A stretch of DNA of 64,000 nucleotides from a bacterium (lineage in GTDB: Bacteria > Patescibacteriota > Patescibacteriia > Patescibacteriales > GWC2-42-12): contig JAUSEG010000005.1 of assembly GCA_030650415.1 (NCBI GenBank), forward strand, positions 23,333-87,332, given 5' to 3'. Of this stretch, positions 6,373-55,251 are shown piece by piece. The number at the start of each line of letters is the position of its first letter. Position 1 is the stretch's first letter. The translations under genes were made by a program, and so were the position numbers. The notes beneath the pieces are model-generated. The model made no database searches, was not told the DNA's origin, and saw nothing but the letters and a program-made list of their open reading frames with translations.

Positions 6373-6383
6373 ATTATTGATAT

Positions 6384-6434
6384 TTACCCCGTTAAATCCG
6401 GCGAAGCCGGAGCAAAGCTATTTAACGGGGTGAA
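6384..6434. repeat. Type-2 hairpin element (TTCACCCCGTTAAAT...ATTTAACGGGGTAAA) in the 5' leader
   Basis: On the minus strand the 3' arm ends 11 nt before the ATG at 6372. Same termini as 10244-10290, 12717-12916 and 55111-55159. Confidence 0.75.
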
Positions 6435-6550: not shown

Positions 6551-9500
6551 TTAGTAAGATAACTTCGCGCCTATTACTTCAGAAACATTCAATAAGACAT
6601 TTGATACATCCGTACCGGTGCCATTATTGCCATTATAAACGAAACGGTAAGTCAGATCAGCAATCTTCGTCTGGACGAAGTCGCCGGACGCGTCTACGCC
6701 GCTAATATCGCCTTCAATGACGATAGTAACTTCGCCGTCCACATCCTCTGTGGTTCCAGATAATTGCGAGAAGGTAGAAGAGGCTGTTCCTGTACTACCA
6801 TCTTCTTGAACCGCGGTAGTCTTATTGCTGGAATCACCATCAATATAGACCTGGATATTATTCACGAAGACGCCGCTTGAGGTGGCAATGCTTAAGCCCA
6901 AGGTTACTAATCGCGCTTTTAGTTCAGTATTATCGCTGTTTCTGTTACTGCCGTTATTGAAGATGAATTTATACTTACCGATAATCTGATCATTGCCGTT
7001 AGATAGCGTTGTATTGGACATCGGATTAGTAATGGAGGTTAGGACTGAACCGTGAATAGTCGCGGTGGTAGAGGTGGCAACGCCCCACTCGGCGTATTCA
7101 CCGGCAGCCACACTGGCATCAGTATCTTCAACCAAAGTAATGTCATCGCCCAAATCTACGCCCACAGCGGTAACCGCGTCATCGGCCGATAGGCCGAGTT
7201 GAGTCAATTGAGTGCTGGAAGCTAAAGTATAGATTATGGTTTCCGCGTCATCGGCCGTAGCGGAAGGATCGCCTTCCACATTAATACCTCTAGCGGTTAC
7301 GCCAATGAAATATTCATGGACGTTATCCGCCGATAGCACTAAGTTCAAGTCGCTGAAATTGGCATCGCCGAGAGTGCTGACGCCTTTTGAAGCCACTAAG
7401 ACTTCATTCTTGTCATACAACTCAACGGATGCAATATCATCGGCTCTGGCTGTGCCCTGTTGGCCTAAGACTAAAGTCTTAACCTTAATCGGTTCATTAG
7501 CGGTGGTGAAAGTTAACTTGCCGAGATATTTATCTCCGGAAGTAATCTTACTGCCTGCTAAGAGGATCGTATTAGTATTAGACTTTAGATCCGTAACCGT
7601 CAGCTCAACTTTCAATGTACCGGCCGAAGCCAAAGTAAGGGTCCTGGAAAGAGTCGCGGCATTCTTTACGCTTTCCGCCACCGCGTTCGAGTCTTTATCC
7701 TGGGCGACTATGCTAGCCGCTACGCCATCCGCTGTAAGTCCGATAACTCCTGTAGGACTAAAGGTGGACGAGAAATCAGCTTTAACTTCTAAGGTCACGG
7801 TCTTACCGGCGGGAATTACTCTGTTAGTTGTGTCTAAAGAAGTAAAGTTGATATAACCAGCGGTTCCTGAAGCAGGTTCAACGATGCCACCGGCAACTGT
7901 CTTAACCAGCTTGTTGTCAACATAGAGCCGTAACTGGGAAATATTAGTATCGCTAAACGCGCTAGCGACAGTAGAAGTAGAGTGAATCTTAACCGAGGTT
8001 AAAGTAACCGCGGAAGACGCGCCCGCTTCTAAGCTGGCCGCGTAAACGACCACATCCTTAGCGCTCGGCACAATCGTCTTAGCTGTTAAGGCGGTTGTCT
8101 GCCAAGTTAAAGAGGCTGTTTTAACCGTAGCGATAGCGCTTGAAACTGATGTCGGGGTAATGCTGGATTGCAAGCTGGCGTCTGAATCATCGCCGCTAAT
8201 AGTAAAGCCGGTGCTCTTTAGAACAACCTGCAAAGTATCGCTATCAACGGCTGGATTGGTATCGTTCGTACCGGCTACATCTACTTTTATCTGATAAGTC
8301 TTGGTCACGCCCTTAACCAAACTGATTTCATCGGAATTGGTTAATTTGCAATAAGAGGCCGTTGTTGAACTGGCGATAGTTAAATCATAAGATGCGCCAG
8401 TGACCGTGTCTCTTAAGACCGCGTTATCAAGTTTAGTGCAAGATGGGTTTGTACCAGTGATATAAAAGCTATCTGCGCCAGCGCCTAACGCGGTAATGGT
8501 GGCATTTTCACCGGCTGAAAGAACTTTAACGGTAGCTAAAATCACGGCGTTATCGCCCGGCCTAACATCTTTAGACGGAGTAACGGTTTTATCCATATCA
8601 ATTGTAACATCACCGGCCGTTAAAGTAACGACAATGCCCTCGCTAACACCGTCTATATTCGCAAAATAGCTAGAACCAATTTCTATGCCATAACCATAAT
8701 CCTGGCCAGTGAAATATAAATCACCGGCTTCGTAAAAATACAAGTCAATGGTATTAGTGGTATTGCCAATGCCGATATCGCCATAAACTTCAACCGTGAT
8801 GGTGTCATTTTTAGCGATAACTTTATTGAAGCTGAAAGTAACGATCTTATCAACCAATTCGCCGCCCTTGACGACTTCATCGCCATCAATCACCACTCTC
8901 ATGTTGCCAACAATGCCGGCGGTATTGGTGCCGCCATTCTTCATGGCAAAGCCGGAGAAAATAACCGCTTCATTAGCCGCGGTTAAATCAAATTTGGCTA
9001 ATAAGACATTGTCTTCGCCGAAATCATTGGAGGTATCAGAAGTGCCAAGATTTGACATGGTAACCGTACCAATAGTTGAACTGGTAACTGCCTGAACATT
9101 ACCTCTAACCGGGAAAGAGCCGCTTACGGCCGCTCCATTAGTAGTAATGTCGCTAGCCGCGGCAATGCCTAAAGCAAAATTTCCCGATGTTTGGCCCGCA
9201 ACAATCGTGGCTTTGACCACTAAAGATTTAGTGGTTCCGGCCGCGACGACGATCGGTGTAGAAAAATTAAAGGTTGCTTCTTTATCGGAATTTATATTCT
9301 TGGCTGTTCCCACTTTGACGCCGTTATCATAGAAAGTAACGCTGTCAACATAAGTGGCCGTACCCAATTCAAAGGTTTTTAGCTTAATCGCACTAACGCT
9401 TACCGCGCCGTCGTTGGAAGCGGTTAAGTTAATCTTTAAGAACGAAGTCGGTGAACCGGCCGGGATAGTGGAGGCAGCCGCGGTGTCTGAAGCTAAGCTG

Positions 9501-10228: not shown

Positions 10229-10243
10229 AGATAAATTTTGTTT

Positions 10244-10290
10244 ACCCTGTGAAATCCCTACGGGATGCGTAGCATATTTCACAGGGTGAA
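10244..10290. repeat. Type-2 hairpin element in the leader of the surface-protein gene
   Basis: ACCCTGTGAAAT-CCCTACGGGATGCGTAGCAT-ATTTCACAGGGTGAA. It ends 15 nt upstream of the ATG at 10228. Confidence 0.75.
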
Positions 10291-10728: not shown

Positions 10729-10874
10729 TGTCATTGCGGGCTTGACCCGCAATCCAGATTTAATTTTCAAAAACACATACTAAGAGACAAAACGTTTATA
10801 CTTTTAACTCCTGGATTCCGGCTTCGTCTGCCGGTAGGCAGACTCTCCGCCAGCTGGCGGAGGCCGGAATGACA
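10729..10874. repeat. Type-1 mosaic palindromic element
   Basis: TGTCATTGCGGG...GGCCGGAATGACA. Contains the modules ATCCAG/CTGGAT, CTGCCGGTAGGCAG and CCGCCAGCTGGCGG. Confidence 0.85.
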
Positions 10875-10876
10875 GT

Positions 10877-11860
10877 TTACTGTGTACTGCTCGCCGTCTC
10901 GCTCGCGCCTTCAACCTGACCGACTTCAGTCTGATTAATAACTTTGTTTATTTCTCCAAGCTTATCTATGGCACCGTTAAGATTTTTTTCATCCACTAGC
11001 TTTTCCGCTTCGTCAAGCATCTGACCGGCCTGCTGTGAGCCTGCCGAACCAGCCGAATTAGCGTTTTCCGCCGTAGAAGTGGCGGTGGCCTGCTGTGAGC
11101 CTGCCGAATCAGCCGCAATTTGGTTTTCTAAAATTGGCTTAGAGGTGCTAGCCACCGGCTCAACTATTGGCGTTGGTTTAATTTGCCCGTCTGCCTGTCC
11201 GGCCTGCCTGCCGGTAGGCAAGGTAGACCCGCCGACTGGCGTGGCCGATTCGGATATTTCCAGCCTTTGATTATTCTTACCTAAATTAGCGCCAAAAACT
11301 TCTGATTCGGCTTCTTTTGACTTGGCCTGATCGGCGGCAGCCTTAATGACGGACAATCGATTTTTTACTTGGCTGATTTCTTTTTTAAAATTCTGCGATA
11401 GTTTTTCCAGCTTGTCATTATTAACTGTAGCGGTTTGACCCTTATCTTCTAAAACCTGAATCATTTCCTTAGCGCGATTAGTGGCAAACTCAACGCCTAG
11501 TTTGGCCTTATCTTTTTCATCAAAGGTCATAGCGAACTGCGCCCGCTCGCTGATAATTTTCGCGATATATAATGAATCGCCGGGTTTAGTATTTTTTGAG
11601 GCGTAAACGCCGCCGATGCCAACCACTAAAATTAAAACACTGGCTATAGAGGCTAGCCAAACCGGTTTAGCGAAGCTCATTAAAATTTGGCGCGGCATAA
11701 TACTCTCCCAAACTATTCTAATATCCGACTTCGGTTCGAGCTCCGGCTGACCGGCGGAAATTTGGCTAAACAAAATATCCCGATATTCTTTCTGCCAATC
11801 ATTATCGGGTTTAATGCTTTTTAAATTATTTAATTTTTTGAGAAGTTCTTGATCAGTCAT
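10877..11860 (-). CDS. Putative anti-sigma/membrane-anchored partner of the ECF sigma factor (DUF5667-like)
   Basis: Lies directly downstream of the sigma gene. Has a single TM segment (VWLASIASVLILVVGIGGVYA) followed by a helical PGDSLYIAKIISERAQF... region. The C-terminal low-complexity part includes repeat-derived LPTGRQAGQ and a 31-bp internal duplication. Confidence 0.45.
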   Translation of the reverse strand: MTDQELLKKLNNLKSIKPDNDWQKEYRDILFSQISAGQPELEPKSDIRIVWESIMPRQILMSFAKPVWLASIASVLILVVGIGGVYASKNTKPGDSLYIAKIISERAQFAMTFDEKDKAKLGVEFATNRAKEMIQVLEDKGQTATVNNDKLEKLSQNFKKEISQVKNRLSVIKAAADQAKSKEAESEVFGANLGKNNQRLEISESATPVGGSTLPTGRQAGQADGQIKPTPIVEPVASTSKPILENQIAADSAGSQQATATSTAENANSAGSAGSQQAGQMLDEAEKLVDEKNLNGAIDKLGEINKVINQTEVGQVEGASETASSTQ

Positions 11861-12096: not shown

Positions 12097-12678
12097 TCAA
12101 GTATTTAAATTTATTTTTTCATCTTGGCTTAAAAGTCCTTTTAGGGCGTTCAAAGACCGATAAATTAAAATTCTAACATTGCCTCTTGATTTGTCTAAAA
12201 CCTCGGCGATTTCTTTAATGGAAAGTTCGTTGATAAAACGCAAAATTATTATTTCGCGATATTCGTCTTTCAACTCCGGTAATTTAGATTCTAAAACCAA
12301 GAGATCGGCTTTAAATTCCATGTCATAATGCGGACTCTGCTTTTCGTCGGCGACTTTAATTCCGTTTTCATCATCCAGACTAACGGTTTCTCGGCCCTTG
12401 GTTTTTCGGTAATGATCAATAATCAAATTTCTGGAAATTTTATAGAGCAGGGCCTTCAGCGTTTTATAATCCTTCAAATTATCTTTCAAAATATAATGCC
12501 AGGTCTTTAGAAACACGGCTGAACATAAATCCTCCGCCTCCTCGCGATTGCCTACCTTGAAATAAATAAATCGATACAGTTGATCAACATATAAATCATA
12601 AGCTCTAACAAAGGCATTTTTATCATTTTGCTTTATCTTATGCAGCAATAGTTTTTCTTCAATCTTGCCTATCTTCAT
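12097..12678 (-). CDS. RNA polymerase sigma factor, ECF/sigma-70 family
   Basis: Region 2 (YDLYVDQLYRFIYFKV..EAEDL..VFLK.W) and a region 4 HTH (EYREIIILRFINELSIKEIAEVLDKSRGNVRILIYRSLNALK). Confidence 0.85.
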   Translation of the reverse strand: MKIGKIEEKLLLHKIKQNDKNAFVRAYDLYVDQLYRFIYFKVGNREEAEDLCSAVFLKTWHYILKDNLKDYKTLKALLYKISRNLIIDHYRKTKGRETVSLDDENGIKVADEKQSPHYDMEFKADLLVLESKLPELKDEYREIIILRFINELSIKEIAEVLDKSRGNVRILIYRSLNALKGLLSQDEKINLNT

Positions 12679-12716
12679 TTAATTATACGTAAAAATTAGA
12701 GTATTGTTACAGTTTA

Positions 12717-12916
12717 CCCCGTGAAATAGCTTCGCACCCCGTTAAAACGGGGATTTCATGGGGTGAACCCCGTGAAATTGCTTCGCACCCCGTTAAAACG
12801 GGGATTTCATGGGGTGAACCCCGTGAAATTACTTCGCACCCCGTTAAAACGGGGATTTCATGGGGTGAACCCCGTGAAATTACTTCGCACCCCGTTAAAA
12901 CGGGGATTTCACGGGG
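12717..12916. repeat. Tandem array of four 51-bp type-2 hairpin units
   Basis: Units start at 12717, 12768, 12819 and 12870. Each unit is CCCCGTGAAATnnCTTCGCACCCCGTTAAAACGGGGATTTCA(T/C)GGGG(TGAA). There are no spacers. The array lies about 38 nt upstream of the sigma-factor ATG. Confidence 0.9.
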
Positions 12917-13062
12917 CAAATAAAAAAATAATCGTAGTAAACGAAAATAATTTGCTAAAATAAGCTATTTTTTTCTCATGCGGGATTCCGTCCAGCTGGA
13001 GAATAAATATATTGATTATAATAACATATAGATAAGCGAAAAGCAATAAAAACTCTCACAAT

Positions 13063-29024: not shown

Positions 29025-29795
29025 TTAATTAAAACTATACTTAAAAAACTTATCAATAATTTCCCCCGCCTCCTGGCCTAATTTTTTACTTATTTTAATT
29101 TTTTGTAACTGTTGAAAATTACATTTAACGGCTAGTCTCAGTAATTTGATGCTATCATCGGTTATAACTAATTGATTAGCATCTTTAGGATTAAAGCACT
29201 TCGAGCAGACCAGGCCGCCTCTCGCCAAATCAAACCGATTTCTTCCCGGCAAAATTTTATTAACGCAACTAACGCAAACTGACAACTCCGGCTGATGACC
29301 TAATAGGGCTAAAAGCTTAAAGATAAATAATTGAGTCAGCATCGTCAAGCGGTAATCGCTATATAATTCTTTCTGGATTCCCCCCGCATTTTGCGGGGCG
29401 GGAATGACAGACTCCGGCCGCTCCAGCGTTTCTAAATAATTTTTCAATAATTCAAATATTTTTTCATCGGCCAGTCCGGGTTTAATAAGCTGATCTATGA
29501 TTTTTACCGCTCGTCCGGCTGGCGCTAATTTAGTCAAATCATTTTTTATATTGCTAAAACAATTTTCGTTTAAAGCCGCGCCCACATAATCATGCCGCCG
29601 GCCGCGCACCGCCATAATATTAGTTAAGCTCAAAGGCTCTAAATGGCCGGCCAGCTTTGATTTTATCTTCTTCGCTCCCCTGGCGGTTAATTCGAGTTTA
29701 CCAAACTCGCGCGAATAAACTACGACCCGGCTATCACATTCGGAAAAACTTTTACGGTTTAAAATTATGGTTTTAATATTATAAGTATCTTCCAT
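29025..29795 (-). CDS. recO: DNA repair protein RecO (with repeat-derived insertion)
   Basis: N-terminal OB-fold pattern and zinc motif CVSC...CSKC. A half palindromic element at 29373-29409 is translated as SVIPAPQNAGGIQ. Confidence 0.75.
   Translation of the reverse strand: MEDTYNIKTIILNRKSFSECDSRVVVYSREFGKLELTARGAKKIKSKLAGHLEPLSLTNIMAVRGRRHDYVGAALNENCFSNIKNDLTKLAPAGRAVKIIDQLIKPGLADEKIFELLKNYLETLERPESVIPAPQNAGGIQKELYSDYRLTMLTQLFIFKLLALLGHQPELSVCVSCVNKILPGRNRFDLARGGLVCSKCFNPKDANQLVITDDSIKLLRLAVKCNFQQLQKIKISKKLGQEAGEIIDKFFKYSFN
29373..29409. repeat. Half type-1 element inside recO
   Basis: CTGGATTCCCCCCGCATTTTGCGGGGCGGGAATGACA, which is the right-hand terminus module of the family. Confidence 0.7.
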
Positions 29796-35948: not shown

Positions 35949-36716
35949 TTATAATATATTATTTACTTCTTGTCTTGGGGCGGTAAGATCGCTTATAGTT
36001 GAGAGCACCGGTTTTTCTTTTTCCGCTTTAACGCGCTTCGGCTCCGGTCTTTTTAAATTCTTTAAAGCTTCAATTACGCATTTAGCGTTATTAACTTTAT
36101 TGCCGGTGCCTAAAATTTTACTGGTGACATTTTTCACGCCAGCCAGTTCTAAAATAATTCTGACCACGCCGCCGGCGATAATACCGCGGCCCTTTTTAGC
36201 CGGTTTAAATAAAATTTTAGCCGCGCCGAATTTCTGGTAAATTTCATGAGGAATCGTTTCGTTAACTATCGGTATATCAATAAATTCTTTTTTAGCTTTA
36301 TTTACGGCTTTAGTTACCGCGCCGGTTACATCAGCACCCTTAGCTAAACCAATCGCCACTCTGCCCTTTTTATTGCCAATCGCGACGCAAGCTCTAAAAC
36401 GCATTCTTTTGCCTCCGGCCATAACTCTGGTAACTCTGGCAATATCGATCATTTTCTGCTCAAATTCTTCAGGCATACCATCGCTTTTGCCTCTAGAAGC
36501 GCCTCTTCTGCCTTTAAAATTCTTATTTCTGTCTCCACCGGCGCCGCCTCTAAAATTATTTCTATTTTCAGTCGCAGGAGCATTTACGGCCCGCCCACCA
36601 TCGCTTCGCCTCTCAGCCGTTGCGGGCGTGGCGCCATTAACCTTAGACTCCGTTACCGGCGCTATTTCAGCTTGCTTATTTTCTTGTGGTTTCTTTTCTT
36701 CTGCCATATTGTTCAC
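35949..36716 (-). CDS. rpsE: 30S ribosomal protein S5 with ~85-aa N-terminal extension
   Basis: VTRVMAGGKRMRFRACVAIGNKKGRVAIGLAKG core. The 27-nt gap to rplO leaves no room for rpmD (L30). Confidence 0.9.
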   Translation of the reverse strand: MNNMAEEKKPQENKQAEIAPVTESKVNGATPATAERRSDGGRAVNAPATENRNNFRGGAGGDRNKNFKGRRGASRGKSDGMPEEFEQKMIDIARVTRVMAGGKRMRFRACVAIGNKKGRVAIGLAKGADVTGAVTKAVNKAKKEFIDIPIVNETIPHEIYQKFGAAKILFKPAKKGRGIIAGGVVRIILELAGVKNVTSKILGTGNKVNNAKCVIEALKNLKRPEPKRVKAEKEKPVLSTISDLTAPRQEVNNIL

Positions 36717-36756: not shown

Positions 36757-37188
36757 TTAAAACTTCAAACCGCCAAGCCTGGCGCCTTCAGCCAAAGCCT
36801 TAACTCGGCCATGATATTTATAACCGTTGCGGTCAAACACCACTCGGCTAATACCCTTAGCTACGGCTTTCTCGGCAATCAATTTACCTAATTCCAAGCT
36901 AATAGCGGTTTTCTTACCTATCTGTCCGGTAGGCAGGCCTTTAGCTTTTACCCCGTTAAATTCCCGATTACTATCGGGACCGGCGGAGCCGGATTTAACG
37001 GGGTGAGCTTCGCCGGCGCCCACGCTAACTAAGGTCCTGCCAATTTCATCATTTATAATTTGGGCATAAATGCCGCGATTGGATCTGAAAACGGTTAGTC
37101 TTGGGCAAACGGCTGTGCCGCTGACCTTGGCTCTGACTCTGCCCTTGCGCCTAAATCTTTTAGCTTGTTTAATTTTATTTATATCCAT
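36757..37188 (-). CDS. rplR: 50S ribosomal protein L18 with repeat-derived internal insertion
   Basis: [17 protein letters not shown] and [26 protein letters not shown]. About 22 extra residues (..[28 protein letters not shown]..) are encoded by the repeat modules. Confidence 0.9.
36922..37006. repeat. CTGTCCGGTAGGCAGG module plus a type-2 hairpin element inside rplR
   Basis: TACCCCGTTAAAT-TCCCGATTACTATCGGGACCGGCGGAGCCGG-ATTTAACGGGGTGA, with the same termini as the leader elements at 6384 and 12717. Confidence 0.8.
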
Positions 37189-38721: not shown

Positions 38722-39360
38722 TTAATTAATTTTTTTCTTATTCTTTTTAATTTTTTTAAATTCGCTTTCATCCGCGTTAAACGGGAAACCGATCAATCTG
38801 AATAGCTCCAAACCTTCTTCATGGGTTTTAGCGGTTGTGCTAAGGCAAATCCCCAAACCGTGAACATTCTCGGTTTCATCAGCTTTAATCTCCGGGAAAG
38901 CCACGTGTTCTTTAAAACCGACTGATAGATTACCGGTATTATCAACCTGCTTAGAGCTAATGCCTCTAAAATCCCTAATTCTCGGAAAGGTTATATTTAC
39001 CAGCTTTTCCACAAAATCAAACATTCTTTTATTGCGCATGGTTACGGCTACGCCGATCACCATGCCTTTTCTGGTCTTAAAAGCCGAAACTGATTGCTTG
39101 GCTTTAGTTAAAATTGTTTTCTGTCCACTGATTCTTTCTAAACTCGAAACTACGCCATCAATAAAAGCTTTGTCTTTAGCGTTTTTCCCCACGCCTGAAT
39201 TAAGCACCACTTTGGTTAAGCGCGGCACAGCCAGCTGGTTTTTATAACCAAATTTTTCTGCCATTTTCGGGATTATTTCTTTTTTATATCTTTCTTTTAA
39301 ATTTACCCCGTTAAATAAATTATTATCTTTATTTGATTTTTTTTCTATTTGATCTGGCAT
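38722..39360 (-). CDS. rplE: 50S ribosomal protein L5 (with terminal extensions)
   Basis: VPRLTKVVLNSGVG, FDFVEKLVNITFPRIRDFRG and synteny. Confidence 0.9.
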   Translation of the reverse strand: MPDQIEKKSNKDNNLFNGVNLKERYKKEIIPKMAEKFGYKNQLAVPRLTKVVLNSGVGKNAKDKAFIDGVVSSLERISGQKTILTKAKQSVSAFKTRKGMVIGVAVTMRNKRMFDFVEKLVNITFPRIRDFRGISSKQVDNTGNLSVGFKEHVAFPEIKADETENVHGLGICLSTTAKTHEEGLELFRLIGFPFNADESEFKKIKKNKKKIN

Positions 39361-39415
39361 ATTTACTCATAAAACCCGGCTAAATATTAAAAATCTAACG
39401 GGGTGAATATAATAA

Positions 39416-43862: not shown

Positions 43863-44396
43863 TTACACGCCTTCGTAAATTTTAATAGCTTGATCTTTTG
43901 GTAAAGTTACTATGGCCTTTTTCCAGTCTTTTCTTTTGCCGCTGATTTTTCCGTAACGAGCGTTCTTGCCCATCATTTTAATAACATTCACACTAGTTGG
44001 CTTAATGCCATAAACCTCTTTAATGGCTTTAGCGATTTCTATTTTATTGGCATCGCCGGCCACGGCAAAAACATATTTATTTAAAGCGCCTAGATTGCTG
44101 ACTTTTTCCGTAACTAACGGTTTAACCAAGACTTTATAGGCATTGCCATAAGTCGTTCGCGCCTGACCCTTCTTAACCTCCTTGCCCTTACCTGCTCCGA
44201 GCCTGGTCGAGGAGGCGGTCGAAGCAGTACCATATAAATCCTTCATGCTCTTAGTTTCCGGCTCTGCCTTAACAGGAGTTTTTCCAGCGCTAACCGGCGT
44301 CGGCTTGGCCACGGCTTTTTTCTGATCACCTGCCCCGAGCTTAATCGAGGGGTCAGTTTTTTTTCCAAATATTGACATACAATAATTAATTTTCAA
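43863..44396 (-). CDS. rplW: 50S ribosomal protein L23 with ~80-aa N-terminal extension
   Basis: C-terminal YKVLVKPLVTEKVSNL...KIEIAKAIKEVYGIKP. Start uncertain (the ATG at 44378 is also possible). Confidence 0.85.
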   Translation of the reverse strand: MKINYCMSIFGKKTDPSIKLGAGDQKKAVAKPTPVSAGKTPVKAEPETKSMKDLYGTASTASSTRLGAGKGKEVKKGQARTTYGNAYKVLVKPLVTEKVSNLGALNKYVFAVAGDANKIEIAKAIKEVYGIKPTSVNVIKMMGKNARYGKISGKRKDWKKAIVTLPKDQAIKIYEGV

Positions 44397-44525: not shown

Positions 44526-45275
44526 TTATTTATACCTTTCTTCTAGCTTCTCAACAACGGTTCTTGCAATAATTAAATTCTTATATTTCAACAGGTCTAC
44601 TATATTTATATTATTCATGTTAATCAGCAAAACGCCAGGTAAGTTTTTTGCCGAATTGGTTAATTTCTCATCAGTCTTTTCGACGATAATCAAGATACTG
44701 CGTTTTTTCGCTGATTTACCGGTTTTAGTTTTCTTTGGCTTGGCTTCAACTTGTCCGGTTAAATTCATGGCCTGCTTAACTTCAGCTGAACCGGAATTCA
44801 ATGGAGTAAAAATTTTATTTTCTAAATTAGCTAAAATCTGATTAAAAAATTTGGTTTTAAATTCCGTTATGGAAAATTTATCTAAAACGACTAAATGATC
44901 GCTGGCCAGTTTATCGGATAAAACCATAAGCATGGCGCCCTGCTTCATCTTTTTATTTATCCGCATTTTAAAATTCCGGTCGTTTCTCGGACCGAAGGTT
45001 ACGCCGCCACCCTTCCAAATCGGTGATCGGCTTGAACCGTGGCGCGCTCGGCCCGTGCCTTTTTGCGCCCAAGGTTTTTTACCGCCGCCCCTGACTTCGC
45101 TTCTGGTCTTAGTATGAGCGATAACTTTTCTCTCGTTGGCCATTTGCGTAACAACCGCCTGGTGCACTAGAGCTTCATTAACTTTCACGCCAAAAACCTT
45201 TGAAGAAAGTTCCATCTCTCCGGCAGCTTCCGCGTCTTGGTTGTAGATTTTTATTTTAAGGCTCATATTTTGCAT
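44526..45275 (-). CDS. rplD: 50S ribosomal protein L4
   Basis: GGGKKPWAQKGTGRARHGSSRSPIWKGGGVTFGP. The first track ATG (45281) lies in the repeat terminus, so the start is set to the next ATG. The exact start is uncertain. Confidence 0.88.
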   Translation of the reverse strand: MQNMSLKIKIYNQDAEAAGEMELSSKVFGVKVNEALVHQAVVTQMANERKVIAHTKTRSEVRGGGKKPWAQKGTGRARHGSSRSPIWKGGGVTFGPRNDRNFKMRINKKMKQGAMLMVLSDKLASDHLVVLDKFSITEFKTKFFNQILANLENKIFTPLNSGSAEVKQAMNLTGQVEAKPKKTKTGKSAKKRSILIIVEKTDEKLTNSAKNLPGVLLINMNNINIVDLLKYKNLIIARTVVEKLEERYK

Positions 45276-45392
45276 TGTCATTCCCGCGAAAGCGGGAATC
45301 CAGGAGGAAGCAGTATAAACATTGTTAATAATTTACCGTGTTTGTGCCTCTGCCTCCTGGATTCCCGACAGCCTGCGGCTTCGGGAATGACA
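45276..45392. repeat. Type-1 mosaic palindromic element (downstream flank of the inserted ORF)
   Basis: TGTCATTCCCGCGAAAGCGGGAATCCAGGAGGAAGCAGTATAAAC...TTTGTGCCTCTGCCTCCTGGATTCCCG...CGGGAATGACA. Confidence 0.85.
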
Positions 45393-45479: not shown

Positions 45480-45794
45480 TTAGCCGATGGTCACGCAAGG
45501 AACGCCGCTACTTTCTGACTTAACCTTACCCTCCTTCTTCGACAATCTCTTGATGAAATTGGCAACCGCCTTGGCTATGCGTATTTGTTCCGCCTTGGCG
45601 CGGTATTCATCAGACTTACGCGCCCTTATTCTCGGATCACCGTAGGTCACCATCTCTGAATCTTCTTCATAGGCCACGGCCGCGGCTTCCAATTCTCTCA
45701 ACTCTTGCTTCAGCCTCCTGCAACGACCGGATAACCTAATGGCCGTTTGCTGCAACCACGCCTTGTCAATAACTACCATCGTTTGTGTTTTCAT
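45480..45794 (-). CDS. Hypothetical 104-aa protein inserted between rplC and rplD
   Basis: An ATG at 45794 is preceded by ACGGAGATCAAAC (GGAG Shine-Dalgarno). Visibly more G+C-rich than its neighbours. Predicted helical and charged (RELEAAAVAYEED..RAKAEQIRIAKAVANFIKRL). No motif recognised. Confidence 0.55.
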   Translation of the reverse strand: MKTQTMVVIDKAWLQQTAIRLSGRCRRLKQELRELEAAAVAYEEDSEMVTYGDPRIRARKSDEYRAKAEQIRIAKAVANFIKRLSKKEGKVKSESSGVPCVTIG

Positions 45795-45838
45795 GTTTGA
45801 TCTCCGTGTTTTTGTTTCTGTTGTTTTATTGTTTGATT

Positions 45839-46026
45839 TGTCATTCCCGCGAAAGCACTCTGTTTTCTTTCTCTGCGCCGAGGTCGGCACCGAGGAGCAA
45901 TCCAGGAGGAAGCAGTACAAACGATCCTTATCGTTTACTATATTTGTGCCTCTGCCTCCTGGATTCTCATGGCTACGCCAGATCTCGCGTAGCGATGACC
46001 GACAGGCTTCGCCTTCGGGAATGACA
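45839..46026. repeat. Type-1 mosaic palindromic element (upstream flank of the inserted ORF)
   Basis: Same orientation and same inner core (ATCCAGGAGGAAGCAGTACAAAC...TTTGTGCCTCTGCCTCCTGGATT) as 45276-45392, plus a GCTACGCCAGATCTCGCGTAGC module. Confidence 0.85.
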
Positions 46027-47206: not shown

Positions 47207-47578
47207 TTACATTTTTATCTCGATGTCAACCCCGGCCGGTAGGCCAAGATTAGTCAAAGATTCTATAGTCTTAGCTGTCGGTTCAATGATATCCACCAAT
47301 CTTTTATGAATTCTGATCTCGTATTGATCCCTTGAATCCTTATGCACAAAGGTTGAACTGTTTACCGTATACTTTTTCTTTTCAATCGGCAACGGTATCG
47401 GTCCGTAAATCTGGGCGCCGGTCCTTTCGGCCGTGTCGATAATCGTCTTAGTGGATTGATCAATAATTTTATGATCAAAAGCTTTAATTTTAATGCGGAT
47501 TCTCTGTTTAGAATCTTCATTGACTCTTACTTCTGATTTGTCGTCTTTAACGGATTTTTTGTCTTTAACTTCAGTCAT
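47207..47578 (-). CDS. rpsJ: 30S ribosomal protein S10 with ~22-aa N-terminal extension
   Basis: [18 protein letters not shown]...HKRLVDII. Confidence 0.92.
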
Positions 47579-49367: not shown

Positions 49368-49949
49368 TTATACCCCCGCAGTAAGACGTTCCTTCATAAT
49401 TATCAAACTAGTCACTAATAGCTCTTCACTATTTACTAAATCAGTATTAAATATAATTTCCACATAATGTGGGGAGAGTTCCTTCCTTGTACAAAACAAT
49501 TCTCCTTCTCTGTAGGTCTGACTTGTTAATAATAAATTGTTGACTTGGGTAGTGTACCTAGAACTATTTATTTGAAAAATTCTACTATTTTTATCAATAT
49601 TAATTTCATAAACTTTCTCACTCAAAATTAACTTATCTTTTAAAAAAACTTCACCATTATTTTTAACAAAACTTCTTTGATACTCACCATTTTCTGCTCC
49701 ATCCAATTGCTTGAAACCAATGTCCTTAATCTTGCCCCAAGCTTCAAAAATACGACTGTCGCTTAATTTAATTTTTGTGCGACCCGCTGAGATTTGACTT
49801 CCATAAAAATACAAAATTTTTGCCCAATGGCGACTTTCTGGCTGATGCTTATTAAATAGAGACTTATCCTTGACGCGCCCAGAAATCTGTACGGTTAAAG
49901 AAATGCCAGCAATAATAACAATAATAATAAATGCAATTAATCCTGCCAT
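49368..49949 (-). CDS. Hypothetical membrane-anchored protein (very AT-rich)
   Basis: N-terminal TM segment MAGLIAFIIIVIIAGISLTV. The rest is N/K/I-rich with no recognised motif. Confidence 0.45.
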   Translation of the reverse strand: MAGLIAFIIIVIIAGISLTVQISGRVKDKSLFNKHQPESRHWAKILYFYGSQISAGRTKIKLSDSRIFEAWGKIKDIGFKQLDGAENGEYQRSFVKNNGEVFLKDKLILSEKVYEINIDKNSRIFQINSSRYTTQVNNLLLTSQTYREGELFCTRKELSPHYVEIIFNTDLVNSEELLVTSLIIMKERLTAGV

Positions 49950-49986: not shown

Positions 49987-50403
49987 TTAAAACGCCAAGT
50001 CTTCCAGGTATTGCCGGTCTTCTTCTATTATTTCCTCGGCGTTGATTTTTCTCTTTGAAGGAATCGACCAGCTCTTATTGAATTTCCTGATCATTTTCTC
50101 CCGCGCCTCTTCATGCTCTTCGCGGCCTTCCTTCTTCGGCAGTTCGGCCAAATGATCCAGGTCCGTGTCCAGGTCGTTATCTAAATTCTGCTCGCTTTTC
50201 CAAATTGCAATATCACGATTTATTTTATCAAGTAATTCATCTTCTGTCAATCCGCGGACTTCGCTCTTGCCTAAAACCAGATTTTCATAATCTTTTAGCG
50301 CCAAAACCACAAAAGTATTGTCTGGTTTAGAGCTATCAAAAATAATCAGCCGATCGCCGGTTTTCTTGACTAAATTAATGGCTTTTTGCAATTGATCATG
50401 CAT
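49987..50403 (-). CDS. Hypothetical acidic protein; N-terminus weakly Phd/YefM-antitoxin-like
   Basis: VKKTGDRLIIFDSSKPDNTFVVLALKDYENLV resembles the beta-beta-alpha core of YefM-type antitoxins. The C-terminus is acidic and charged. The resemblance is by eye only. Confidence 0.4.
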   Translation of the reverse strand: MHDQLQKAINLVKKTGDRLIIFDSSKPDNTFVVLALKDYENLVLGKSEVRGLTEDELLDKINRDIAIWKSEQNLDNDLDTDLDHLAELPKKEGREEHEEAREKMIRKFNKSWSIPSKRKINAEEIIEEDRQYLEDLAF

Positions 50404-52908: not shown

Positions 52909-53958
52909 TCAATTTGTAAATTTGAATGTTGCTAAGATTTGCTTTTGTAAATCATTATCTTCATCAATATAATATAAATCAGCTGGGCATGAACCAAAAC
53001 TAATTACAAGGGTTTTATCGCTAACTGCAGTCTTAACTATTGTCGCCAAGCAACCAGCATCGCCCATCTTATACTTATAGCCAGCATTATTACCGACTTT
53101 TATTGTTTCAAATTTTTCAATTTTTCCATACATATCTTCAATATTATTTGGATCTAATTTTTTATCTGTTAAAGTTAAAGATAATGTGCCACGTTTACTA
53201 TTAAAATAAACATAATTTTCTTCTTTTCCAGCAATACTAAAAACTGTACCGGGGTATTTAAATGAAACCCCGCTCAATTTACTATACTGCAACCATTGGC
53301 TATCTACGACTTTTGGTTTTACCCAATCTTCGTTGATTTTAAAAGTTTTCAGTATCTCCTGTGATATTTTATCATCCTTGAGAAAATTAATTAAAAATAC
53401 TGTTCCTAGTTTATTGGCAGTAAAAATAAAAGTTCTTTCTTTTTCTATTTGCCATCCCCCAGTCTGCCATTGGAAACTTCCTATTATATTAAAAGTAAAA
53501 GCATCTCTACCATCAACTTTTGTAGTAAGGAGGTTTGAAATAAATTTATTTTTAATATTTGGATTATTGTCATCTTTGTTAATCTGCCAAATTTCCTGTG
53601 CATATTCATCTATAGGTTGCTTTACTGCTTCCACGGTTAATACTTCAAAAGAGGAACGATTAACAGGAGTTTTATATTGATAGCCATATTTTTCATTATA
53701 ATAAATTTGCCAATCGTTTGTATCAACGACTTCGGGCTCTTCGGTCAGGTTTTTAGTAATAGCTTGATTATTTTTCTCAAAATTATCGTTAATTTTCTGC
53801 AAATTTTTTACTGCCTGATTTTCAATCTGCTTGCTTTGCTGAATTTGCCCTTGCCATTTTATTGTGCCAAAAGCAATCACGCCAATTACTAAAACAGCTA
53901 CTAGAATAGCTATTAATGCAAAACCTCTTTGTTTAAAAATTTCTTTGTTCGTTTTCAT
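52909..53958 (-). CDS. Hypothetical exported protein with pilin-like N-terminus
   Basis: KQRGFALIAILVAVLVIGVIAF resembles a prepilin leader (G/F cleavage site plus hydrophobic helix) but lacks Glu at +5. The remainder is N/K-rich with 2 Cys near the C-terminus. Confidence 0.45.
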   Translation of the reverse strand: MKTNKEIFKQRGFALIAILVAVLVIGVIAFGTIKWQGQIQQSKQIENQAVKNLQKINDNFEKNNQAITKNLTEEPEVVDTNDWQIYYNEKYGYQYKTPVNRSSFEVLTVEAVKQPIDEYAQEIWQINKDDNNPNIKNKFISNLLTTKVDGRDAFTFNIIGSFQWQTGGWQIEKERTFIFTANKLGTVFLINFLKDDKISQEILKTFKINEDWVKPKVVDSQWLQYSKLSGVSFKYPGTVFSIAGKEENYVYFNSKRGTLSLTLTDKKLDPNNIEDMYGKIEKFETIKVGNNAGYKYKMGDAGCLATIVKTAVSDKTLVISFGSCPADLYYIDEDNDLQKQILATFKFTN

Positions 53959-55058: not shown

Positions 55059-55110
55059 AGTAAATAAAAAGTAAAAAAACAAACCCGTATAGGCGGGATA
55101 TTGTAGAATT

Positions 55111-55159
55111 TACCCTGTGAAATCCGGCTCTGCCGGTGCATAGCAATTTCACGGGGTGA
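55111..55159. repeat. Type-2 hairpin element in the rpsL leader
   Basis: ACCCTGTGAAAT-CCGGCTCTGCCGGTGCATAGCA-ATTTCACGGGGTGAA. It ends 52 nt upstream of the rpsL ATG. Confidence 0.75.
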
Positions 55160-55251
55160 ATAACTTATTTTAATTTAACACAAGAAATAAAAACGGTCAA
55201 GGGGTATTTTCTTCCCCCTTGATAAAGGGGGTTAGGGGGATTATATTCTTA

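Follow-up and report, generated by a model that had tools for sequence, protein, structure and literature searches.

Small palindromic repeats of two families in the reading frame of rplR, the gene for ribosomal protein uL18, in a Parcubacteria-like bacterium

Introduction

Rickettsia palindromic elements (RPEs) are non-coding repeats of 100-150 bp (PMC1779305), which are found between genes and also in frame within genes, where they add a peptide segment to the host protein (PMC10969869; PMC1779305). The DNA analysed here is a stretch of 64,000 nt (referred to as the window; GenBank assembly GCA_030650415.1, contig JAUSEG010000005.1, positions 23,333 to 87,332 of the forward strand) from a Parcubacteria-like bacterium of the Candidate Phyla Radiation (CPR). 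Its rplR gene, which encodes ribosomal protein uL18, contains two repeat modules in frame, namely module B, a nested hairpin of 57 nt, and module A, the decayed copy of a 21-nt hairpin. The two resemble RPEs in that the repeats occur both between genes and in frame in genes, and in that the host belongs to a reduced-genome, host-dependent bacterial lineage. They are set apart from RPEs by size (21 nt for A and 48-60 nt for B) and by lineage (phylum CPR/Patescibacteria), and also by the stacking of several families in one ribosomal-protein loop, by the occurrence of 0-3 copies as alleles and by head-to-tail arrays. A preliminary description of this DNA had drawn the comparison with Rickettsia; it is apt for the behaviour of the elements and does not extend to family membership, as size and lineage differ. 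With good confidence, the extra segment of uL18 can be attributed to two unrelated families of small non-coding palindromic repeats that were inserted in frame in one loop of the protein; a mobility of family B in single-stranded form is proposed.

Several other systems are relevant to family B. Haloquadratum PATEs (palindrome-associated transposable elements) are transposase-free and can measure no more than 52 bp, small mobile repeats (SMRs) are without target duplication, and strain-specific presence and absence has been described (PMC3119063). Family B is like PATEs and SMRs in being too short for a transposase, palindromic, free of target duplication and strain-specific. PATEs have no terminal inverted repeats and contain two subterminal palindromes, whereas family B is essentially one hairpin with its arms as termini and is thus closer to SMRs; residence in frame in essential genes, for which neither PATEs nor SMRs are known, is a further difference. 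IS608 integrates 3' of TTAC without duplication and is excised precisely (PMC5027513), and family-B units similarly follow TTTAC. A pre-existing target pentanucleotide, the lack of a duplication and hairpin-forming ends, which are the traits of IS200/IS605-type elements that can be tested on sequence, were all found here.

Repetitive extragenic palindromes (REPs) and REPINs are comparable as GC-rich hairpins of 20-40 nt with many, often clustered, copies, and their movement is ascribed to a Y1 transposase that has been domesticated, the REP-associated tyrosine transposase (RAYT). REPs are extragenic by definition and have a 5' GTAG or CGTC tag (PMC3733652). The present repeats differ in having copies inside rplR, adk and rplF, in the family-B termini (TTTAC/CCCGT...GTGAAT) and in module A, where GTAG is seen only in the loop. 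Miniature transposable elements with inverted repeats (MITEs) normally make target-site duplications and are related to a known insertion sequence (IS). Family B has the terminal inverted repeats and the in-frame fusion in common with MITEs, unlike which it is much smaller and has neither a target-site duplication nor a parent IS seen in the window. MITEs, which include ERIC, Coxiella QMITE and the Anabaena MITEs, are non-autonomous, have terminal inverted repeats and sometimes give in-frame fusions to open reading frames (ORFs) (PMC10969869). No description of such elements in CPR/Patescibacteria was found in the literature searched, which was not exhaustive.

The uL18 gene and its two inserted modules

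The identity of the host gene is given by several lines of evidence. Its product is identical to NCBI MDO8667606.1, which carries a precomputed PF00861 (Ribosomal_L18p) assignment, and uL18 chains of the PDB match it with E=1e-29, with residues 8-58 and 91-143 aligned and the insert skipped. The gene order is L6 (37217-37765), L18, S5 (35949-36716), L15 and SecY, as in the spc operon. The baseline length of uL18 in the clade is 117 aa, and the protein of the window has 26 more residues (19 + 7), which result from two separate in-frame insertions kept apart by five original codons. The preliminary description, which had located repeat modules in this gene and read them as a peptide of 30 residues, was right on both counts, the peptide being what the rplR frame gives; the extra segment that it estimated at roughly 22 residues is real and has to be lengthened to 26. 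On alignment with CPR orthologues, it was seen that element-free relatives are of 117 aa, their flanking codons being directly joined without any extra segment.

Module B, which follows GAA (Glu60), is intact in the window. In the sense direction it reads ATT CAC CCC GTT AAA TCC GGC TCC GCC GGT CCC GAT AGT AAT CGG GAA TTT AAC GGG. The complete hairpin element reported earlier is confirmed as an inverted repeat with perfect 12-nt arms (36950-36961 and 36993-37004) and an interior of 31 nt. As RNA, either strand is predicted to form a three-way junction made up of the outer stem and two inner hairpins, and the two strands fold equally well; the sense-strand fold has an energy of -37.6 kcal/mol (z=-6.2). 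A covariance model built from 17 family-B copies scores the rplR copy (36947-37007) at 71 bits (E=4e-21). Between genomes, the inner hairpin TCCCGAT-TACT-ATCGGGA differs only in its loop, and the other one, CCGGC-GGA-GCCGG, is also present in the intergenic copies at 6386 and 55112. On the + strand, the order in rplR is CTGTCCGGTAGGCAGG (36922-36937), followed further on by TTTAC-CCCGTTAAAT-TCCCGATTACTATCGGGA-CCGGCGGAGCCGG-ATTTAACGGGGTGAGC.

Module A in its intact form reads CTG CCT ACC GGA CAG GCA GGC, with a stem of 7 bp and a loop of 7 nt, and is situated five codons downstream of the B site; the perfect form found at the rplR site of relatives is CTGCCTACCGGACAGGCAGGC. The copy in the window is a decayed version of the hairpin CCTGCCTACCGGACAGGCAGG, in which the right arm has degraded from CAGGCAGG to CAGATAGG, and it folds no better than shuffled sequence. 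No perfect module-A hairpin (CCTGCC N5-11 GGCAGG) was found in the window. The 16-mer CTGTCCGGTAGGCAGG occurs as a whole only once in the window, and near copies of its 12-nt core are located at 10831 and 11203-11225. Exact copies of the 21-mer are intergenic in three relatives (L086, L088 and L167) and in frame in the rplF gene of L092 (213-237, read as AAV-SLPTGQAG-GSK), where rplR is empty. The earlier claim that both modules are of the same kind as intergenic copies holds in the window for module B; for module A it does not, exact intergenic 21-mers being present only in relatives. The assignment of the inserts to two unrelated dispersed repeat families is supported by these sequence comparisons.

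Two observations concern module-A-like DNA elsewhere in the window. The copy at 11203-11225 (CCTTGCCTACCGGCAGGCAGG) gives LPTGRQAG in the frame of a DUF5667 ORF (10877-11860), and an intergenic composite repeat at 10810-10880 includes the hairpin CTGCCGGTAGGCAG.

Alleles at the rplR site in relatives

The best 120 uL18 clusters from a protein search were compared, and the DNA of 38 CPR loci was viewed codon by codon. The clusters have lengths of 117, 123, 124, 130, 133, 134, 136, 143, 148, 153, 154 and 157 aa and identities of 62-100%. Between the YAQ and FDR motifs, length variation is confined to one loop, and otherwise only the annotated N-terminus differs. Baseline spacing was found in 82 of the best 120 clusters, B-type inserts in 20, A-type inserts in about 15 and both in 3. 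An empty site (L163) reads GAA / GTA AAG ACC AAG GGC / AAT AAA, and relatives carry A alone (124 aa), B alone (136 aa), both (143 aa; the window, L161 and P0002) or neither. Alternative B variants with other interiors (SPLKRGAKQ, SDNVGAKQ, SGKAGAKQ and SRLAGIPPKAEL) are found at the same site, together with complex alleles such as tandem doublets (153 and 154 aa), two units with a remnant (157 aa), a nested copy (148 aa) and the short remnant HPAKG (123 aa).

The closest alleles are the most informative ones. Among five rplR alleles with a DNA identity of 95-99%, two (L170 and L171) have no element, one (L172) has a single element and two (L164 and L173) have two in tandem; the second tandem units of L164 and L173 differ in their interior. 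There are also close pairs that differ only by the insert, namely L162 and L163, P0003 and P0028, and P0005 and P0021, P0022 or P0024. A parsimony count on a neighbour-joining tree (113 core columns) gave 17 changes for the 20 B carriers; it was not relied on because a short conserved protein gives a poorly resolved tree, and the close filled and empty pairs were used instead. Judged by comparison of these alleles, the loop site of rplR turns over fast, with gain, loss, replacement by variants, tandem doubling, nesting and decay. The view that mobile hairpin DNA repeatedly remodels a core ribosomal protein is supported at the level of sequence.

Repeats can be misassembled in metagenomes, and a chimeric assembly had been considered for this site in the preliminary description. 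The same insert, however, is present at the same codon in at least ten independent assemblies from different projects and samples (NCBI metagenome-assembled genomes, ENA, JGI and Logan), with diverged flanks, and the probability of an assembly or binning artefact at the rplR site is practically negligible.

Insert DNA compared with the host gene

Five genomes carrying the 57-nt variant of module B were compared. The host rplR gene is 71-83% identical among them over all positions and 47-64% identical at third codon positions. Module B is 93-98% identical, with 18-19 of its 19 third positions unchanged, for which the chance per pair is 0.55^19, or ~1e-5. The differences in module B are confined to the loops of the inner hairpins and to the junction codons 61-62 (ATT/GTT/GCT; CAC/AAC). 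Transfer of a patch including the flanks was rejected as the cause of this homogeneity because the flanking host codons differ between carriers. Recent independent hits at one point, conversion via the shared arms, and constraint on the hairpin at the nucleotide level remain as explanations, and the fast turnover in the near-isogenic series would be sufficient for either of the first two.

The lengths of the in-gene inserts are 18, 21, 48, 51, 57, 60, 93, 108, 111 and 120 nt, all of which are multiples of three and stop-free, and this includes loci obtained by tblastn, independent of gene calling. Two intergenic copies (10243 and 55111) do carry stops in the frame used in rplR. Arms of the type GTTAAAT leave one open frame per orientation; the copy in the adk gene of a relative (see below) is in the frame in which GTTAAAT would create TAA, and that copy is of the GTGAAAT subtype. 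From these frames we infer that the inserts are translated and are neither bypassed nor removed from the RNA. Ribosome bypass, known from T4 gene 60 and the mitochondrial byp elements, or removal from the mRNA would be in keeping with a stable hairpin within a coding region, and GC-rich hairpins that are short and mobile are likewise characteristic of byp. In-gene inserts that are without exception stop-free multiples of three are unlike gene 60 and byp, and, with the stops of the intergenic copies and the subtype found in adk, they render an untranslated insert highly improbable.

A structure predicted with AlphaFold2 from a 40-sequence alignment retains the uL18 strands (30-36, 39-46 and 51-57) and helices (90-110 and 127-138), with a predicted local distance difference test (pLDDT) score <50 at residues 63-88. 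The uL18 of E. faecalis has 7 residues where the protein of the window has 32. According to this model, the 26 extra residues would form a flexible disordered loop on an otherwise normal uL18 fold. The loop may be exposed at the surface of the ribosome. It could be argued that the loop is a lineage-specific adaptation with a function in the ribosome and that the palindromic nature of its DNA is incidental, as the reading frame is intact in all carriers, uL18 is a protein of the central protuberance and an insert at this site has been retained by several lineages. This is very unlikely, considering that the same DNA is found between genes and in adk and rplF, that near-identical alleles are without the insert, that the interiors of the variants are completely different, that nucleotide conservation exceeds that of synonymous sites in the host gene and that disorder is predicted for the segment.

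Family B in the window and in other genes

For the arm motif of family B, 17 occurrences were counted in the window where 2.6 would be expected. Besides rplR there are five further loci (Table 1), none of which is inside a conserved gene body, and a scan of the window with the covariance model recovered the known loci and no others. The outer stem of the 17 copies, with arms of 12-15 bp, is 94% paired, and 5 of its 15 pairs change on both sides, for example T:A to G:C at pair 11 and C:G to T:A at pair 8. The covariation score was reached by 0 of 500 shuffles, and slid controls collapse. This covariation backs the hairpin family and is supportive rather than proof, the copies being mutually related.

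Family B is also found in a second essential gene. In the adk gene of L164 (6874-7593), a 57-nt three-way-junction element with GTGAAAT arms is located in frame at 7452-7506, and the adenylate kinase has 239 aa compared to 220, the 19 additional residues reading SPREIPDSNRDRRSRISRG. The flanks of filled rplR loci contain 8 family-B copies per 122 kb and those of empty loci 1 per 154 kb (p=0.008; p=0.07 once the window itself is removed). Scans of IMG/VR viral contigs with family-B patterns gave 0 matches and hence no sign of a phage vector.

A role at the RNA level was also considered, in which the element would be a processing or stability element or a translational pause in the spc operon transcript and the peptide a by-product. 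The structure within the mRNA is very stable, its stems are perfectly conserved with changes only in the loops, and another copy spans the start of rplE, the region at which autoregulation of the spc operon acts in E. coli. Such a role is nevertheless unlikely, as the element is missing from most close relatives, both strands fold equally well, and copies are present in unrelated contexts and in both orientations. Rfam gave no match over the window at gathering thresholds, nor over 36880-37060 at E<=1.

Two of the loci in Table 1 deserve further description. The array at 12713-12920, whose units consist of a hairpin enclosed by arms of family B, is situated directly upstream of a gene for a sigma factor of the ECF (extracytoplasmic function) type (12097-12678); a CRISPR array was ruled out, as there are no unique spacers. 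In the rplE region (38722-39407), the arms at 39305-39316 and 39393-39404 flank the ATG at 39360. The L5 protein of 212 aa has an N-terminal extension, MPDQIEKKSNKDNNLFNGVN, before the usual start (MNLKE...), and the usual ATG is now GTA. A similar extension is present in L002 and L161, most relatives having an L5 of 179 aa.

Insertion junctions and proposed mobility

On the canonical strand, solitary copies of family B in the window read TTTAC / CCCGT(T/G)AAAT ... ATTT(A/C)ACGGGGTGAAT, and arrays consist of TTTAC followed by n units, each ending in GTGAAC. TTTAC precedes 6 of the 6 window loci (6386, 10244, 12716, 36950, 39305 and 55112). All six have TTTAC on the left and GTGAA on the right of the + strand, nearly all genes being on the minus strand. 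Two independent empty sites define the junction further. At rplR, the antisense strand of the empty L163 reads CTTTAC^TTC, and in the filled L162 an insertion of exactly 57 nt is seen where the ^ stands, with an unambiguous boundary and no duplication. At adk, the empty L166 and L167 read AAGTTTAC^C, and the filled L164 has a 57-nt unit whose position is fixed within a 3-nt ambiguity. The only repeat at the adk junction is GGT, which forms the final 3 nt of the unit and is also found in the 3 nt upstream of it; it can be ascribed to the element end or to the upstream flank and is distinct from the TTTAC/GTAAA at the opposite boundary. With a TTTAC frequency of 0.0017 per position, a match at both empty-site junctions has a chance of ~1e-5. 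The second unit of L164 and both units of L166 also come after TTTAC, and the nearest alleles without those units read TTCAC. Codon 61 in most empty rplR alleles is ATA, GCx or ACA, without TTAC, which would explain why only some lineages were hit.

These junctions suggest a single-strand transposition of family-B units similar to that of IS200/IS605. A unit of the form 5'-CCCGT.AAAT...ATTT.ACGGGGTGAA(C/T)-3' would integrate directly 3' of an existing TTTAC without target duplication. Such a pattern would be characteristic of the single-strand transposition by HUH/Y1 enzymes that is associated with IS200/IS605, its short PATE derivatives and REP/RAYT. The units would depend on an enzyme acting in trans, and precise excision by an HUH-type mechanism would restore the original reading frame. 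In the proposed scheme, module B (a nested hairpin of 48-60 nt bounded by ACCCCGT(T/G)AAAT arms) and module A (the GC-rich hairpin of 21 nt) would have entered the loop between strand 3 and the long helix of uL18, and both would be transcribed and translated together with rplR. The copies that survive would be those with a length that is a multiple of three, without stops and in a tolerant loop, and such a filter would account for the elements seen in rplR.

Some observations weigh against this scheme. No transposase, HUH/Y1 or RAYT domain (Pfam, NCBIfam) was found in a scan of the ORFs of the 64-kb window with >=120 aa, which covered all but certain minor or overlapping ones, and no parent IS element was seen in the window. 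The order of the inner hairpins in rplR is opposite to that of the other window copies, while the terminal asymmetry is the same; this uncoupling is not predicted by a simple transposon model with two ends. A near-isogenic empty allele reads ACA where precise excision leaves GTA. Moreover, TTTAC pairs with the GTGAA end and could belong to the inverted repeat of the element itself; only two independent empty sites tell these readings apart.

A spread without any transposase is less likely but a serious alternative. It would start with slippage or template switching promoted by the hairpin at the TTTAC/GTAAA microhomology and continue with gene conversion via the arms, the site being hot because a resident copy recombines. 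Such a process would be in line with the lack of an enzyme in the window ORFs scanned, with different interiors between identical arms at one site, with tandem expansion and contraction, with the homogenisation of insert DNA relative to the host gene and with the 5 nt that the junction and the element end have in common. It accounts less well for how an empty site in genes as unrelated as rplR and adk was first reached, for which conversion needs more than 5 nt of homology, for unit boundaries that are exact and the same at independent sites, and for head-to-tail arrays with a constant junction.

An extension of HUH-type transposition can be formulated, although as a whole it is speculative and rather improbable. 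The loop between strand 3 and the helix of uL18 would be a natural cassette site, which hairpins enter at TTAC in codon Val61 and leave without a scar, so that CPR populations display 0 to 3 interchangeable peptide modules on the central protuberance. The same would take place in adk, rplF, rplE and recO, it would be a main source of lineage-specific inserts in CPR proteins, and the variation would possibly be selected.

Implications

Selfish palindromes in frame have been a textbook oddity of Rickettsia, and the same outcome is now seen in the unrelated CPR/Patescibacteria, a radiation of very large extent that is still poorly understood. The elements in rplR are three to seven times smaller than RPEs and are inside a universally conserved ribosomal protein, and the allelic series, in which genes that are nearly identical have 0, 1, 2 or 3 copies, shows the process under way. 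In the phylogeny of CPR, length variation of a marker ribosomal protein can be derived from repeats and be homoplastic, and insertions that are specific to a lineage in CPR proteins may in many cases represent mobile DNA and not adaptations. The filled and empty pairs, together with TTTAC without duplication, offer a testable handle on the movement of hairpin repeats of less than 60 nt. Compared with the preliminary description, the present analysis supports the distinction of two families, a hot spot in rplR with an allelic series, the involvement of other essential genes and a candidate target rule.

Features of the window

Table 1 Positions of rplR, its two modules and the family-B loci in the window
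Feature	Position	Strand	Basis
rplR, uL18 of 143 aa	36757..37188	minus	ORF, PF00861, synteny, PDB uL18 matches
Module A, decayed copy of the 21-nt hairpin, codons 85-91 (LPTGQIG)	36916..36936	minus	relatives with the perfect form or nothing
Module B, 57-nt nested-hairpin repeat, codons 61-79	36952..37008	minus	codon alignments; absent from 117-aa relatives
Outer arm ACCCCGTTAAAT of module B	36950..36961	+	100% complementary to 36993-37004
Outer arm ATTTAACGGGGT of module B	36993..37004	+	100% complementary to 36950-36961
Inner hairpin TCCCGAT-TACT-ATCGGGA of module B	36962..36979	+	sequence, fold
Inner hairpin CCGGC-GGA-GCCGG of module B	36980..36992	+	sequence, fold
TTTAC directly 5' of the module B unit, proposed pre-existing target	36947..36951	+	sense GTAAA: Val80 and start of Lys81
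Intergenic family-B copy	6383..6434	+	covariance model 65 bits, fold
Copy of family B (GTGAAAT arms), 5' edge of a 1243-aa ORF	10241..10290	+	covariance model, fold
Head-to-tail array of four family-B units, period 51	12713..12920	+	arm motif, covariance model
Pair of family-B arms around the start codon of rplE and the rplX-rplE junction	39302..39407	+	arm motif
Intergenic family-B copy upstream of rpsL	55109..55160	+	covariance model, fold

Other repeats and long reading frames

A third hairpin family is located in frame in recO (29025-29795, minus strand) at 29373-29408 (GTCATTCCCGC...GCGGGAATCCAG), where it is read as VIPAPQNAGGIQ. The RecO protein has 256 aa compared to 239-240 in relatives, and six near-exact intergenic copies of this hairpin are present in the window (29869, 45278, 46878, 46931, 52801 and 53976).

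Four ORFs on the minus strand (45480-45920, 49368-49949, 49987-50403 and 52909-53958) have no Pfam match and are situated between conserved genes of the str and S10 operons, namely rplC and rplD, fusA and tuf, and rpsG and fusA. The one at 52909-53958, of 349 aa, has a weak prepilin-like N-terminus, and several of these Pfam-free ORFs are bordered by GTCATTCCCGCG hairpins. Several other ribosomal proteins of the window also exceed the usual length or that of relatives, namely L23 with 177 aa (43863-44396), L4 with 251 aa (44526-45281), S5 with 255 aa (35949-36716) and S10 with 123 aa (47207-47578); in the loci compared, the length of S5 varies between 205 and 259 aa. In L164 (2173-2726), rplF is called with 107 aa after a 230-nt gap, which may represent another disruption or an assembly difference, the near-identical contig L165 having a normal protein of 182 aa.

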